A program made the position numbers and the translations under genes. A DNA stretch of 64,000 bases from Patescibacteria group bacterium (GTDB taxonomy: Bacteria; Patescibacteriota; Minisyncoccia; UBA6257; 2-01-FULL-56-20). Below the pieces are notes generated by a model, which made no database searches, was not told the DNA's origin, and saw only the letters and a program-made list of their open reading frames with translations. Within the stretch, counting starts at the first letter, position 1. Each line of letters begins with the position of its first letter. Positions 2,637 through 32,821 of the stretch are shown here, piece by piece. The stretch spans positions 2,886 to 66,885 of the forward strand of contig JANLHI010000030.1 of the NCBI GenBank assembly GCA_024654525.1, given 5' to 3'.

Positions 2637-2784
2637 ACGACCTCCCCGCATCCGGTGTGGATAACTATTTTTAGAACCTTGTTTTACAAGGTTTTTTTGT
2701 GTGGACAGTTCCAGATGTGTTCCATATAAGTCACGTTCCGAATAGGAGAAGATATAAAAGTCGAAAAAACAAAAAAATAAACCT

Positions 2785-4062
2785 ATGCCTGCACAAAAAC
2801 TTTCATGGAGGAACGAAGTGCGTCGGGTTTCGGATCTCGTGCCGAATCCGAAAAACCCTCGTTCCATCTCGCCGAAGCAGATGGAGGACTTGAAGCGCAG
2901 TCTCAAGAAATTCGGCCTGGTCGAATTGCCCGCGATAAACACTAACAACAGAATCTTGGCCGGACACCAACGCCTCCTCGCGCTCCAACTCCTCGGACGC
3001 GGTGACGAAAAGATTCCCGTTCGCGTGCCAACGCGCCCGCTCACAAAGAAGGAATACGATCAATATCTTCTGACCAGTAACCGCGTCCACGGTGAATGGG
3101 ATTATCAAATGCTCGCCGAGCAATTCGATGTCGAAATGCTCCTCGCCTCAGGCTTTGACGACGGGGATCTCTCGGTTATTTTCGACGATCTTCAAGTGGA
3201 AGACGACGAATTCGATCCGGAAAAAGAATTAAAGAAGATAAAGAAAACGGATGTGAAGCCGGGAAGTCTCTACCAACTGGGACCGCACCGTATTCTTTGT
3301 GGCGACAGCACCAATTCCGAAGTCGTCAAGAAACTCATGGGCGGCAAGAGTGCGGCGGTCATTCTCCAAGATCCCCCGTACAACATCGGTCTCAGCTATA
3401 ACAAAGGCATCGGCGGGAAAGGTAATTACGGCGGTGAAACGAACGACGCGAAGTCAGACGAAGAATATGAATCATTTCTCCGCAAAGCCCTTGCGAATGG
3501 CGTCGACGCCTGCGAGAAGGACGCACACGTGTTCACATACCACGATCCCCGCTACACCTGGCTTTTGCAAAAACTTTACAAAGAGCTGGGCATCGCGTAC
3601 AAGCGGACGTGTTTGTGGGTAAAAAATAATTCTACGCCCACACCTAACGTCGCCTTCAATCGCCAATATGAACCGGCGCTCTACGGCGTTATCGGGAAAC
3701 CGTATCTTTCGGAGCGATCATTCAATTTTTCCGAGATCTTAAACCGCGATGTTGGGATCGGTAATCGCACCATAGACGACATTTACGATTTGATAGACAT
3801 CTGGCTCGTAAAGCGGCTCGGCGGTTCGGAGTATGAGCATCCCACTGAAAAGCCGCCCATGCTGCACGAGCGGCCGCTGCGGCGTTGCACTAAGCCGGGA
3901 GATATCGTGCTTGATCTGTTCTCTGGTTCATCCAGTATTATGGTCGCTTGCCACGGGTTGAAGCGCATCGCGTATATGGTCGAACGCGAGCCGATTTTCG
4001 TTCAATTATCGCTAAACAGATATGCCAAACTTACGGGAGAAAAAGCAAAAAGGATCGCCTAA
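2785..4062 (+). CDS. ParB-like nuclease domain fused to an N6-adenine/N4-cytosine DNA methyltransferase (phage-type)
   Basis: N-terminal VPNPKNPR...ILAGHQRLLA matches a ParB N-terminal domain. The DPPY motif (ILQDPPYN) and C-terminal HPTEKP...DLFSGSSS (motif I) indicate a beta-class amino-MTase. Confidence 0.8.
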   Translation: MPAQKLSWRNEVRRVSDLVPNPKNPRSISPKQMEDLKRSLKKFGLVELPAINTNNRILAGHQRLLALQLLGRGDEKIPVRVPTRPLTKKEYDQYLLTSNRVHGEWDYQMLAEQFDVEMLLASGFDDGDLSVIFDDLQVEDDEFDPEKELKKIKKTDVKPGSLYQLGPHRILCGDSTNSEVVKKLMGGKSAAVILQDPPYNIGLSYNKGIGGKGNYGGETNDAKSDEEYESFLRKALANGVDACEKDAHVFTYHDPRYTWLLQKLYKELGIAYKRTCLWVKNNSTPTPNVAFNRQYEPALYGVIGKPYLSERSFNFSEILNRDVGIGNRTIDDIYDLIDIWLVKRLGGSEYEHPTEKPPMLHERPLRRCTKPGDIVLDLFSGSSSIMVACHGLKRIAYMVEREPIFVQLSLNRYAKLTGEKAKRIA

Positions 4063-20143: not shown

Positions 20144-20379
20144 ATATTCATAAATTATTTCAGAAGTTCCTCCATTGGAACGCCTAACGACTTGGCGATT
20201 TTTATGGACCGATTTATTAGTTTTAAAATGTCTTCTCTCACCTTAACATTAATCAAACGAACATCTTTGGTTTTCTCATAAAGTTTATCCAAATAAGAGC
20301 TAATTTCGGGTTGCATTGTATTTAAAGATCTGGGGCGGTTATGTCTCTCAAGTGGGTGCTTAATCGTACGATTAACTAC

Positions 20380-20626
20380 AAAAAATAATTCTTTAACATC
20401 TTCTTAATAGTTCTAAATCCCCAGCCGCTCTTAAGATATTCTTCTCGTGATTTGGCATCCCTCATATTCAAAACGCTTCATAGAATATCAGTTCGTAGGG
20501 GCGAAACGGTTTTGTCGCCTGACTTTTGCCGCTGTTGTGTTCGGCAACTCGTTTCTCAAGGTCGGCTGTATATCCAATATATAAACTTTGGTTTTTCTTA
20601 CTCTGCAAAATGTAAACGTAATACAT
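20380..20626 (-). pseudogene. GIY-YIG nuclease family gene disrupted by a frameshift and stop
   Basis: The N-terminal part MYYVYILQSKKNQSLYIGYTADLEKRVAEHNSGK...YEAF ends at TGA at 20468. The C-terminal part (REEYLKSGWGFRTIKKML) continues in the +1 frame from 20465. Together they match the intact copy at 31980. Confidence 0.55.
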
Positions 20627-20711
20627 TTTTTGTGTTATGGCGGGACGTAATAATTTCTTCGAAATTAAACGTCCCAGCAACGTAAAATTTGCCGTGCAAA
20701 TTTGTACGTTG

Positions 20712-20798
20712 CGGAGGGGGTGAGATTCGAACTCACGATACCCTTTCGAGTATACCGCATTTCGAGTGCGGCGCCTTCGGCCACTCAGCCACCCCTCC
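20712..20798 (-). tRNA. tRNA-Ser(CGA)
   Basis: Acceptor GGAGGGG/CCCCTCC, anticodon loop CTCGAAA, a long variable arm, and T-arm GTGAG-TTCGAAT-CTCAC. Confidence 0.75.
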
Positions 20799-30969: not shown

Positions 30970-31045
30970 GCCACCTTAGCTCAGCTGGTAGAGCAACACT
31001 TTTGTAAAGTGAAGGTCCCCGGTTCGAATCCGGGAGGTGGCTCCA
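30970..31045 (+). tRNA. tRNA-Thr(TGT) with encoded CCA
   Basis: Acceptor GCCACCT/AGGTGGC, anticodon loop TTTGTAA, T-arm CCCGG-TTCGAAT-CCGGG. Confidence 0.7.
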
Positions 31046-31205: not shown

Positions 31206-31471
31206 GCCGATGTAGCTCAGCTGGCAGAGCAACTCCATGGTAGACGAATCCTGCCCATCCCGACGGTAACGTCCGGATGAATCCTGAATTACGGTTAAAG
31301 GCCCGCACGGGGTTCAGACCGTAGCGCTTCTTGCGCTCGAACGACTGACAAGGGTTTCCTCGTGTTATCGAGGAGAAAGATACAGTCTAATCCTTCCGCA
31401 TATGTGTATATCGAAAAGGGAAGGTAGTAATGAAGGAGTAGGTCGCCGGTTCAAATCCGGCCATCGGCTCA
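31206..31471 (+). tRNA. tRNA interrupted by a group I intron in the anticodon loop. The most consistent reading is tRNA-Thr(GGT).
   Basis: The 5' exon GCCGATGTAGCTCAGCTGGCAGAGCAACTCCATGGT and the 3' exon AAGGAGTAGGTCGCCGGTTCAAATCCGGCCATCGGCT form a perfect cloverleaf once ~191 nt are removed. Confidence 0.65.
31242..31432 (+). ncRNA. Group I intron (~191 nt, no ORF)
   Basis: It contains sequences resembling the P, R and S core elements: aattacggttaaagg, gggttcagaccgtagc and aaagatacagtct. It ends in G before exon 2. Confidence 0.55.
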
Positions 31472-31554: not shown

Positions 31555-31731
31555 ATGGCGGGAAAAAAATCAAAACATTCGGAGAATCTCATAGGGCTTC
31601 GCTGTACTACGTGCAAGCGGAGGAATTACTATACCAGCAAAAACAAGAAGAAAGTTGAAAGAAAGATTGATCTTAAAAAGTTTTGCGAGTGGTGCAGAAA
31701 GCACACTGGTCATAAAGAGGTTAAAAAATAG
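31555..31731 (+). CDS. rpmG: 50S ribosomal protein L33
   Basis: 58-aa ORF below the ORF-track cutoff: [58 protein letters not shown], with a Cys4 zinc ribbon. Confidence 0.75.
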
Positions 31732-31833: not shown

Positions 31834-31904
31834 GGGGGCATCGTTCAGTGGTAGGACAGCGGTCTCCAAAACCGCCAACCTGGGTTCGATTCCTAGTGCC
31901 CCCG
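31834..31904 (+). tRNA. tRNA-Trp(CCA)
   Basis: Acceptor GGGGGCA/TGCCCCC, anticodon loop CTCCAAA, T-arm CTGGG-TTCGATT-CCTAG. Confidence 0.8.
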
Positions 31905-31963
31905 CCTTCGCCCGCCATAGCTTTAGCGACGGCGGGATTCGCTAAGCTATGTCGGGCTTCGGC
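31899..31963 (+). repeat. 65-nt direct repeat, copy 1. It starts in the last 6 nt of tRNA-Trp.
   Basis: Sequence cccccgccttcgcccgccatagctttagcgAcggcgggattcgctaagctatgtcgggcttcggc. It is identical to copy 2 except for one position and contains internal inverted repeats. Confidence 0.8.
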
Positions 31964-31979
31964 GGGCAAGCCCGCTATA

Positions 31980-32234
31980 ATGAGGTATTATATTTTCATG
32001 CATTTCGTATATATTCTGAAATGTGCCGACACTTTCAATTATGTGGGTTGCACTAACAACATCGAAGACAGATTAGAGCGTCACAGTAAAGGACAAGTTG
32101 AGGCAACTAAGAGTAGGCTTCCAATTGAATTGGTTTCCTACGTTGCTTTCGAAAATAAATACAAAGCTTACGAATTTGAAAAATATCTCAAGTCCGGTTC
32201 GGGTCGAGCATTTATCAAAAAACACCTTGCGTGA
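31980..32234 (+). CDS. GIY-YIG nuclease family small protein (84 aa)
   Basis: MRYYIFMHFVYILKC...YVGCTNNIEDRLERHSKG and the C-terminal EKYLKSGSGRAFIKKHL. The ORF-track start at 31848 lies inside the tRNA, so Met45 was taken as the start. Confidence 0.7.
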   Translation: MRYYIFMHFVYILKCADTFNYVGCTNNIEDRLERHSKGQVEATKSRLPIELVSYVAFENKYKAYEFEKYLKSGSGRAFIKKHLA

Positions 32235-32296
32235 GATTCCCTTTATTTCGCCGAAGCTCAAAAAGCAAAGGCGAAGTTGAACCGTTAGGTTTACTA

Positions 32297-32361
32297 CCCC
32301 CGCCTTCGCCCGCCATAGCTTTAGCGGCGGCGGGATTCGCTAAGCTATGTCGGGCTTCGGC
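32297..32361 (+). repeat. 65-nt direct repeat, copy 2
   Basis: Same sequence as 31899-31963 with a single A/G difference. Confidence 0.8.
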
Positions 32362-32404
32362 ATGGTAATACCCGCCGTAATTTTAGCGGTGGTGGGAGTC
32401 GAAA

Positions 32405-32821
32405 GTGTATAATCTGCAATATCATATGTCCTGGGACGAATTCGACAAAGAAATGCGCGCGCTTGCGCAAAAGATTGAATATATACCCGACATAATTGTG
32501 GGTGTGGTGCGGGGCGGGCTTGTGCCTGCGCGGCTTCTTTCGACGCTTCTTAAAGTGCCGAAGATGAGATGTGTTACATTGGAAAGAGCGGGGGAGAGAA
32601 AAATTTTAGACGAGTTACAGGGGGATTTTACCGGAAAAAAAGTGCTGGTGGTAGAGGATATGATAGAAACGGGCAAAGGTCTGGTCGCCGCAAGGAAATA
32701 CCTGGAATCCAAAGGGGCATCCGTCAAAACCGCGTGCTTGTATACCATGCCGATTTCAGAAACAACCCCCGATTATTTTTTGAGAGAAGTAAGTGAAGTA
32801 ATTAAATTTCCTTGGGATTGA
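32405..32821 (+). CDS. Phosphoribosyltransferase (type I PRT, purine salvage-like)
   Basis: PRPP-binding motif VLVVEDMIETGKGL. Confidence 0.6.
   Translation: MYNLQYHMSWDEFDKEMRALAQKIEYIPDIIVGVVRGGLVPARLLSTLLKVPKMRCVTLERAGERKILDELQGDFTGKKVLVVEDMIETGKGLVAARKYLESKGASVKTACLYTMPISETTPDYFLREVSEVIKFPWD

Follow-up and report, generated by a model that had tools for sequence, protein, structure and literature searches.

We analysed a 64,000-nucleotide stretch of contig JANLHI010000030.1 from a Patescibacteria group bacterium (hereafter, the window) and found that the small GIY-YIG nuclease gene directly behind its tRNA-Trp gene is part of an extensive family of apparently selfish cassettes of about 0.35-0.4 kb, which are located immediately 3' of tRNA and transfer-messenger RNA (tmRNA) genes in two phyla. 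The cassette consists of a G+C-rich leader that starts after the discriminator base of the tRNA and contains a hairpin 1 and a hairpin 2, the latter repeating the last 5-7 nt of the tRNA, and of the gene for a 78-aa nuclease. Some cassettes continue into a short 3' spacer, at the end of which the tRNA 3' end is repeated. In the window, the order is tRNA-Trp, leader A, nuclease, spacer, pseudo-tRNA-Trp end, leader B and next gene. The explanation that we favour, and regard as reasonably probable, is that the locus represents an old selfish tRNA-3'-end cassette with a minimal Slx1-like nuclease, the two leaders of which have been kept alike by gene conversion. It builds on the anatomy of the cassettes, their placement at tRNA and tmRNA genes, the match of hairpin 2 to the tRNA, duplications of tRNA ends, the spread across phyla, orthology in relatives, and the intact catalytic motifs of the protein, all of which were directly observed. 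The features of the locus are the following:

31834-31904, +, tRNA-Trp(CCA), 61.2 bits with the Rfam tRNA model; ARAGORN gives 31834-31906
31899-31963, +, direct repeat copy 1, composed of the 6 terminal nt of tRNA-Trp, CC and nt 1-57 of leader A
31905-31936, +, family-wide module CCTTCG-CCCGCC-ATAGCTTTAGCGAC-GGCGGG, inside leader A
31910-31957, +, hairpin 1 of leader A, GCCCG.CATAGCTT.AGCGA ... TCGCT.AAGCTATG.CGGGC, 18-bp imperfect, by folding
31962-31975, +, hairpin 2 of leader A, GCGGGC-AA-GCCCGC; its 3' arm repeats the final bases CCCGC of tRNA-Trp
31976-31981, +, TATAAT, a -10-like hexamer 16 nt 5' of the GIY-YIG ATG
31998-32234, +, gene of the 78-aa GIY-YIG nuclease, stop codon included; 84 aa if translation began at the upstream ATG at 31980
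32235-32296, +, 3' spacer of the cassette, 62 nt, with a homologue following the GIY-YIG orthologue of the related locus L104
32247-32275, +, leader-style hairpin TTCGCC-GAAGC..GC-AAAG-GCGAA in the 3' spacer, by folding
32292-32304, +, pseudo-tRNA-Trp 3' end TACTACCCCCGCC, matching the window's own tRNA-Trp at 11 of 13 positions
32297-32361, +, direct repeat copy 2, composed of the pseudo-tRNA end and nt 1-57 of leader B
32359-32396, +, rest of leader B: variant hairpin 2 and a degenerate hairpin-1-like module
32359-32376, +, variant hairpin 2 of leader B, GGCATGGTAATACCCGCC
32371-32396, +, degenerate hairpin-1-like module of leader B, CCCGCCGTAATTTTAGCGGTGGTGGG; compare GGCGTGGTAAGACCCGCC in L097 and L081
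32408-32413, +, second TATAAT, 12 nt 5' of the phosphoribosyltransferase start codon at 32426; right-hand boundary of the element

The linkage to tRNA and tmRNA genes was quantified in a sample of 80 family loci from species-representative genomes of the Candidate Phyla Radiation (CPR) and the Bacteroidota, with proteins 59-75% identical; upstream tRNAs were counted at the 69 loci with at least 600 nt of upstream sequence. At 60 of these, a tRNA or tmRNA gene on the same strand ended 51-351 nt before the ATG. About 50 of the upstream RNAs were tRNA-Ser isoacceptors, and the others were tRNA-Trp, tRNA-Met (in Bacteroidota), tRNA-Glu, tRNA-Asp, tmRNA and a borderline Val-like call. At the remaining nine loci, the leader was present behind a tRNA-like end (..CACCGCC, a missed tRNA-Met, or a tmRNA end). 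The 415 kb of family loci contain 47 other tRNAs, and from the tRNA density, with no computed control, we estimate that a same-strand tRNA this close would be expected by chance at a few percent of the loci. Every leader starts with CC-TTCG or a close variant directly after the discriminator. Among other tRNAs in the family loci, 46 of 51 had no CCTTCG leader, and their ends read ..CTCCGC followed by A or T. The best match to the 78-aa protein among GTDB representatives was 75% identical.

The sequence of hairpin 2 corresponds to the tRNA behind which the cassette is located. Its 3' arm equalled the terminal 5-mer of the upstream tRNA at 51 of 58 loci; in 2000 permutations, the maximum was 43 and the mean 34.9. 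The arm reads ..TCCGC behind tRNA-Ser, ..CCCGC behind tRNA-Trp, ..CCCAC behind tRNA-Met, ..TCCAC behind tmRNA and ..GCTGC behind tRNA-Glu, and the Ser-type arm was present at no non-Ser locus. At 16 Bacteroidota tRNA-Met loci, the 3' arm GCCCAC matches the tRNA, but the 5' arm is still GCGGGC, which results in a C.A mismatch; a compensated 5' arm, GTGGGC, was found at three loci. Thus, the match to the tRNA takes precedence over the pairing of the two arms. Two proteins that are 90% identical were found at tRNA-Trp (L037) and at tRNA-Ser (L040), and their leaders are homologous, with hairpin 2 changed to fit.

Hairpin 1 is also conserved as a structure. In homologous leaders, its six-pair stem covaries, with the pairs CCCGCC/GGCGGG, CCCGAC/GTCGGG, CCCTCC/GGAGGG, CTTGCC/GGCAGG and ACCGCC/GGCGGT. 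The strong internal inverted repeats noted in the original prediction are real: they form the 18-bp imperfect hairpin at 31910-31957, and the interleaved CCCGCC/GGCGGG pairing is the one with covariation support. In compact leaders, hairpin 2 is nested in the hairpin-1 loop; elsewhere, as in the window, it comes after hairpin 1. The compact leaders have a second, mutually exclusive covarying pairing, of 5' (A/T)CGC(T/C)G with the start of the hairpin-2 5' arm, which accounts for the T or A that appears "bulged" in this arm. As the two covarying pairings exclude each other, the leader can take alternative folds. An H-type pseudoknot was rejected in favour of such alternative pairings, because the adjacent strands have no loop between them. 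The idea that the hairpin-2 5' arm is a primer-binding site for the CCA end of the mature tRNA was also rejected, because the base before GG is C and not T, and because no reverse transcriptase is present. Concerning the folded strand, the counts of G.T and A.C in the stem (15 versus 16) were uninformative, and the mismatches in hairpin 2 implicate opposite strands depending on the locus.

No T-run is present behind hairpin 1 or hairpin 2 in the window, and the terminator scan called nothing there. The two hairpins thus lack the T-run that marks a Rho-independent terminator, whereas many hairpin-1 copies of Bacteroidota do have one. Searches with Rfam 15 yielded no match to the leader, beyond tRNA and tmRNA, in the window (at the gathering threshold and at E<=5) or in 20 related loci. 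Downstream of each leader, a TATAAT stands 12-16 nt before the next ATG, the second of these ATGs being the phosphoribosyltransferase start at 32426, placed from P0121 and Pfam PF00156; a promoter element may be supplied by the leader module or lie next to it. A full sigma-70 promoter at 31976-31981 was not called by the promoter scan.

The original prediction had described two copies of a 65-nt sequence that differ at one position, lie 398 bp apart and bracket the GIY-YIG gene, the first of them starting in the last 6 nt of tRNA-Trp. Repeat and pattern searches, the latter allowing three mismatches, verified exactly two copies in the 64-kb window (31899-31963 and 32297-32361, 398 nt apart, 64 of 65 positions identical), and the tRNA ends given by Rfam and ARAGORN agree with a start of copy 1 within the tRNA (31899-31904). 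The repeat pair had no counterpart in 100 shuffles, and a third full copy, a weaker copy or a fragment was not found in the window with blastn-short or with searches using parts of the repeat. Outward, the match extends weakly to 31894/32292 (TAGTG versus TACTA). The G+C content of the repeat is 66%, compared with 43.6% for the window. The discriminator of tRNA-Trp is the G at 31904, and the genomic CC at 31905-31906 is already part of the repeat and the leader; copy 1 therefore opens with the last five acceptor bases and the discriminator, followed by CC. Only the first 8-13 nt of the 65-mer are derived from the tRNA, and the other 57 nt are a copy of the conserved hairpin leader. By this composition, the repeat represents a "tRNA end plus leader" that is present twice, and not a bare attachment (att) site. 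The pseudo-end TACTACCCCCGCC is identical to the tRNA-Trp 3' end of the relatives L103 and L104 and not to that of the window, the tRNA-Trp of which has compensating changes in the acceptor and T stems relative to the type of the pseudo-end. The pseudo-end is thus an old copy of the ancestral tRNA 3' end.

The history of the locus could be traced in relatives found via the flanking phosphoribosyltransferase, which are annotated as Candidatus Liptonbacteria and are 76-77% identical. L104 and L105 contain rpmG, tRNA-Trp, leader, GIY-YIG gene, a spacer homologous to that of the window and a degenerate pseudo-end, after which the sequence is unrelated and a second leader is missing. The identities between the window and L104/L105 are 71% for the GIY-YIG protein, 82% for rpmG, 76% for the phosphoribosyltransferase and 75% for NUDIX. 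The orthology indicates that the cassette was already present at this tRNA-Trp in the common ancestor. In L103, tRNA-Trp is directly followed by a terminator hairpin, and a decayed cassette starts about 150 nt further on, at position 636. It comprises the last bases of the GIY-YIG open reading frame (ORF; gcgtga), a partial spacer, the pseudo-end and a leader, and no intact gene; positions 669-733 are about 88% identical to the repeat of the window and stand behind the same pseudo-end. With regard to empty sites in relatives, L104 has the intact cassette, and L103 has a tRNA-Trp with a terminator directly behind it and a decayed copy further on; a clean pair of filled and empty sites was not found. 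Between the tRNA and the decayed cassette, at 489-640, L103 contains the terminator and an inverted partial copy of the tRNA-Trp T-arm and acceptor (tagtagtagggaatcgaac). Its leader is followed, at 760-1180, by about 400 nt of G+C-rich, apparently structured sequence with another leader-like module.

The leaders A of L104 and of the window share only about 75% identity, with compensated changes in the stems, and thus the 64/65 identity of the two copies in the window does not date from the original insertion. Instead, the sequence comparison points to a recent gene conversion, or a re-recombination, between the two junctions; the near-identical tract begins at 31899 and ends within GGCTTCGGC at 31963. 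The earlier proposal of a tRNA-targeting integration with att duplication can be retained in part. The cassette lies exactly at the tRNA 3' end, a copy of this end is present on the far side, and the linkage was found at 60 of 69 loci. However, most of the 65-mer is leader and not tRNA, and the insertion is not recent, as an orthologous cassette exists in the relatives.

The nuclease had been predicted to be an 84-aa GIY-YIG protein. The family assignment was correct, but the length was not: the homologues and the 100%-identical entry P0001 start at the ATG at 31998, and, judged from this comparison, a protein of 78 aa from this codon is probably the true product. It matched the Pfam family GIY-YIG (PF01541) with 51.5 bits (cut-off 22.6, E 1.3e-13). 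Of the 3035 homologues, the top 120 have 65-77% identity and come, by annotation, from many CPR lineages and from Bacteroidota. In 28 diverse members, Y5, Y15, G17, R25, H29 and E61 are invariant, so that the catalytic set is intact, and a subfamily-specific C-terminal motif, EKYLKSGSGRAF, is invariant as well. The AlphaFold model is confident, with a pLDDT of 94.8. The best fold matches with Foldseek were the UPF0213 structures 1zg2 and 1ywl and the Slx1 structures 7cq3 and 6seh (template-modelling score 0.66-0.69 for Slx1), and the best sequence match among structures, using phmmer, was again 1zg2 (E 1.8e-8). Slx1 is an endonuclease that acts on branched DNA in a structure-specific manner. 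Judged by closest sequence and predicted fold, the 78-aa protein is a minimal domain of the stand-alone Slx1-like/UPF0213 clade. It consists of the catalytic domain alone, with no separate DNA-binding domain. NCBIfam holds no model for the 78-aa subfamily. Phages are no reservoir of the family, as phage records contained just three weak matches, with less than 40% identity.

Two observations concern the annotation of such genes. An ORF of 128 aa (31848-32234, +) begins within tRNA-Trp, crosses the leader and continues in the GIY-YIG frame, and database homologues of 90-141 aa (P0045, P0054, P0058, P0116 and P0120) probably have similar spurious N-terminal extensions through the leader. P0179, a 229-aa ORF of another lineage, contains the Pfam domains Pribosyltran and GIY-YIG, i.e. 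the gene pair of the window fused or called through.

A second tRNA-linked GIY-YIG gene is present in the window at 20379-20625 (-), 85 nt behind tRNA-Ser(CGA) at 20711-20798 (-). It is of the classical UPF0213 type (MYYVYILQS..) and 40% identical to the 78-aa protein. Its frame is broken at a T-run, and one extra T would restore an ORF of 83 aa. Its leader is of a different, AT-richer two-hairpin type. The sequence at 20650-20710 (-) is a conserved tRNA-Ser 3' flank, 'ctccgc|aacgt..acgttgctgggacgtt', which also occurs in Levyibacteria-like loci; in L028 and L030, the flank 'ctccgc|aacgt..' is present and no GIY-YIG gene follows.

Several features of the family are signs of mobility. Copies of the tRNA end were found behind the gene. 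In L068, 24 nt of the upstream tRNA-like 3' end recur 34 nt after the stop codon, followed by the apparent original terminator; L031 has a 14-nt copy and L104 a degenerate one of about 16 nt, and similar pseudo-ends were seen by eye in L050, L083, L051 and L067. In the window, the tRNA-end direct repeat comprises 8 nt identical to its own tRNA and 13 nt identical to the ancestral type. Gene-less units bounded by tRNA-end copies are present in L092, L114, L161 and L002/L009/L011, and leaders are arranged in tandem in L025, L034, L052 and L066. In one metagenome-assembled genome (MAG), two copies that encode 97% identical proteins lie at different tRNA-Ser genes (L039 and L060). The exact 24-nt start of the leader is common to CPR and Bacteroidota loci.

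Some of these loci show further rearrangements. The gene-less inserts of L002, L009 and L011 are of variable length, lie behind tRNA-Ser(GCT) (at about 2860-3000 in L002) and are bounded by aatcccacctcctccgc; the three contigs carry an identical 80-aa GIY-YIG protein, P0064. L025 contains three 38-nt leader sub-units at 2841-3000, and L066 several repeats of two module types at 2740-3000. The Bacteroidota loci L012 and L015 (about 2250-2400) have the same tmRNA, a hairpin insert of 70 nt and a duplicated tmRNA 3' end, and, from one locus to the other, the real tmRNA end and the duplicate have exchanged the T-stem variants cccag/ctggg and ctctg/cagag.

The module also occurs in solo form. Its first 24 nt (CCTTCGCCCGCCATAGCTTTAGYG) yielded 82 matches in 80 listed loci, which are CPR-like and Bacteroidota metagenome contigs. 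In these listed loci, nearly every match directly follows a tRNA, a tmRNA or part of a tRNA 3' end. At 41 matches, ARAGORN recognised a complete tRNA or tmRNA; most others have only a T-loop/acceptor-end fragment or an upstream sequence that is cut off, and at a handful nothing tRNA-like is visible. A GIY-YIG gene was located within 450 nt at 29 of the 72 evaluable matches and absent at the other 43, and about half of the latter have a T-run after hairpin 1, which gives them the look of a tRNA terminator. According to the original prediction, occurrence of the repeat at many unrelated loci without GIY-YIG genes would have made it a generic repetitive extragenic palindromic (REP)-like element. 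Gene-less copies of the first 24-36 nt are indeed frequent (43 of 72), but nearly all are found behind tRNA or tmRNA ends. The module is thus specific for tRNA ends, and it is neither a generic REP nor exclusive to GIY-YIG genes. This pattern fits an enzyme-encoding element beside its solo derivatives; a module with a life of its own fits it as well.

A mechanism compatible with these observations can be proposed. The two "tRNA end plus leader" junctions of the window would be the product of a cassette that was inserted by recombination into, or stacked on, a tRNA end with a leader already in place; the recombination might have been of the Campbell type, or a break might have been repaired by copying from a filled allele. 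The nuclease might nick or cut the palindromes or the tRNA-end junction and, like Slx1, might recognise structure and not sequence. Cleavage could then drive the copying of the cassette; alternatively, an excised or copied unit could recombine at a "tRNA end plus leader". The gene might be expressed from the tRNA promoter, by read-through, or from the TATAAT beside hairpin 2. After hairpin 2 has been reset to a new tRNA end, quasi-palindrome correction could restore it. A model in which the leader alone is a target-site duplication was dropped as the sole explanation, since the nuclease gene would then lie outside the element everywhere.

A bolder version, to which we assign little probability, would make the cassettes a new class of minimal mobile elements, in which the 78-aa nuclease is directed to tRNA and tmRNA 3' ends by the element's own hairpin 2. 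The arms of hairpin 2, with their complementarity and identity to the final 5-7 nt of the target, would then act like a guide, and retargeting from tRNA-Ser to tRNA-Trp, tRNA-Met, tRNA-Glu or tmRNA would require a change of the hairpin only, comparable to the guides of IS200/IS605.

Several points weigh against an old selfish cassette. A filled/empty pair among otherwise identical contigs was not found in an all-against-all comparison for loci with the same upstream flank and different GIY-YIG status. BLAST detected a tRNA-end copy behind the gene at only 3 of 63 loci, and a few more were recognised by eye. The DNA similarity between L039 and L060 is restricted to the ORF, and thus leader and gene do not always move together. 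Hairpin 1 alone is common behind tRNAs that have no nuclease gene, often with a terminator-like T-run. The 78-aa protein has no obvious means of sequence recognition, and cleavage, transcription and excision of the cassette are steps that we infer from sequence. Lastly, the long vertical inheritance at this tRNA-Trp would also fit a useful host gene.

This last point leads to the rival that we take most seriously, although we consider it unlikely, namely that the gene is a host gene for a small nuclease co-transcribed with tRNAs, that the leader is a regulatory or processing RNA, and that the 65-nt repeat is a local tandem duplication. We retain it because of the long vertical inheritance here, i.e. 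at tRNA-Trp in the Liptonbacteria-like clade. The protein is very strongly conserved, the family is present in most sampled CPR lineages, the two exclusive pairings of the leader both covary in a switch-like manner, and a TATAAT follows both leaders. In addition, bacterial stand-alone Slx1-like proteins are held to be vertically inherited, and a TrmH fusion hints at RNA metabolism (PMC1564403). Against a host gene speak the copies of tRNA 3' ends at the cassette borders, one of them 24 nt long, the near-identical proteins and the exact 24-nt leader start common to CPR and Bacteroidota, the paralogues at different tRNAs of one genome, the decayed or frameshifted copies (L103 and window 20379-20625), and the patchy spread over tRNA types. 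It is improbable, in our view, that the leader is an independent palindrome of tRNA flanks (a terminator, or a module like a miniature inverted-repeat transposable element, MITE) that GIY-YIG genes just tend to adjoin, and that the window contains two such modules. The 43 evaluable matches without a gene within 450 nt, about half of them with a T-run, and the gene-less tandem units in L114 and L161 agree with such a module, but the leader is present at 69 of 69 evaluable gene loci, hairpin 2 and the gene have a fixed order and orientation, and no other tRNA of the window is flanked by the module.

The two remaining explanations concern the repeat pair itself. A direct repeat that overlaps a tRNA 3' end is a hallmark of integrase-mediated islands, and the 65-mers could be attL and attR of an island remnant in the tRNA-Trp 3' end. 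Yet no integrase is encoded between or near the repeats, the 398-nt interval holds the 78-aa gene only, and the same mini-architecture exists without an integrase in dozens of lineages, which makes this origin very improbable. As the window comes from a MAG, in which short repeats may be wrongly assembled, the duplication might also be an assembly artefact. This can be practically dismissed: independent assemblies share the junction of pseudo-end and leader (L103, L113, L115 and L164) and the spacer (L104 and L105), and the copies are distinguished by their flanks and by one internal base.

The upstream neighbourhood of the cassette contains two further genes of the predicted order tRNA-Thr, rpmG and tRNA-Trp:

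30970-31045, tRNA-Thr
31555-31731, rpmG

This order was corroborated, with the addition of an intron-bearing tRNA-Thr(GGT) at 31206-31470 (+), which has an insertion or intron of 191 nt in the anticodon loop after position 36. It was detected solely with the intron option of ARAGORN and missed by default ARAGORN and by Rfam; a search for a group I intron in the insertion gave no match at E<=5. The original prediction had also remarked that secE and nusG, which would normally follow, are missing. They are missing in the relatives too, and their absence is not due to the cassette.

Comparison with known systems reveals partial similarities to several of them. The free-standing GIY-YIG homing endonucleases of phages (T4 Seg, I-TevI) are proteins of 200-250 aa with separate DNA-binding domains. 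They have in common with the cassette a nuclease gene between conserved genes and signs of selfish spread; in contrast, the cassette protein has 78 aa and no DNA-binding domain, and the cassette has a structured leader and a copy of its target. T4 SegB, which is encoded among tRNA genes, is reported to promote the preferred inheritance of the T4 tRNA gene region (PMC2330249). Integrase-mediated islands at tRNA and tmRNA genes share with the cassettes the exact insertion at the 3' end, the duplication of the tRNA 3' end (8-24 nt in the cassettes) and tandem arrays. However, the cassette has no recombinase gene, as the GIY-YIG ORF is the only one between the repeats, it comprises 0.4 kb and not kilobases, and its duplicated segment runs on into a hairpin borne by the element. 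Functionally, the closest counterparts of the element are free-standing homing-endonuclease genes and tRNA-targeting integrative elements, but it lacks a defining feature of each, namely the DNA-binding domain and the recombinase, respectively.

REP sequences with their REP-associated tyrosine transposases (RAYT), IS200/IS605 and MITEs also combine G+C-rich palindromes with an enzyme gene and more numerous solo copies, and elements of the IS200/IS605 type contain an internal sequence complementary to the target. In contrast to REP/RAYT and IS200/IS605, the enzyme of the cassette is GIY-YIG and not HUH, and the cassette is confined to tRNA 3' ends and not dispersed. The two copies in 64 kb are both at the tRNA-Trp locus, which is not the distribution of a dispersed repeat; solo copies do exist (43 of 72). 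The likeness to REP/RAYT or IS200/IS605 thus holds only by analogy.

The protein itself resembles the bacterial stand-alone Slx1-like proteins and the Slx1 domain, which likewise consist of a single minimal GIY-YIG domain with the catalytic residues Tyr, Tyr, Arg, His and Glu. Dunin-Horkawicz et al. (2006) regarded the bacterial stand-alone Slx1-like group as vertically inherited repair proteins (PMC1564403). The cassette subfamily differs from UPF0213/COG2827 (1zg2 BH0048, 1ywl EF2693) by its own C-terminal motif EKYLKSGSGRAF, and from UPF0213/Slx1-like proteins by its tie to tRNA and tmRNA 3' flanks and to the leader, which the 2006 survey does not mention (PMC1564403). GIY-YIG proteins are also found in insertions in rRNA genes of CPR, and a 2024 J Bacteriol survey of non-intron insertions in CPR rRNA reported sparse GIY-YIG ORFs (PMC11270868). 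Compared by description only, these share with the cassette the host group, the superfamily and a site within or beside a stable-RNA gene, and neither a tRNA link nor a leader was reported for them (PMC11270868). In the accessible full-text literature, which excludes most subscription journals, we found neither the tRNA linkage nor the leader nor the target-matching hairpin described; the claim of novelty is therefore provisional.

If the favoured explanation is true, thousands of genes for a "GIY-YIG nuclease family protein" in CPR and Bacteroidota would be the enzymes of an unrecognised class of elements of about 0.4 kb, which would be among the smallest protein-coding mobile elements and specialised on tRNA and tmRNA 3' ends. 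For annotation, the leaders explain spurious N-terminal extensions such as that of the ORF at 31848-32234, as well as conserved G+C-rich hairpins behind tRNA genes. The target-copying hairpin would provide a concrete route to asking how a nuclease that has no DNA-binding domain finds its site. The cassettes would also bear on the role of the bacterial stand-alone Slx1-like proteins, which have so far been assumed to be vertically inherited repair enzymes.

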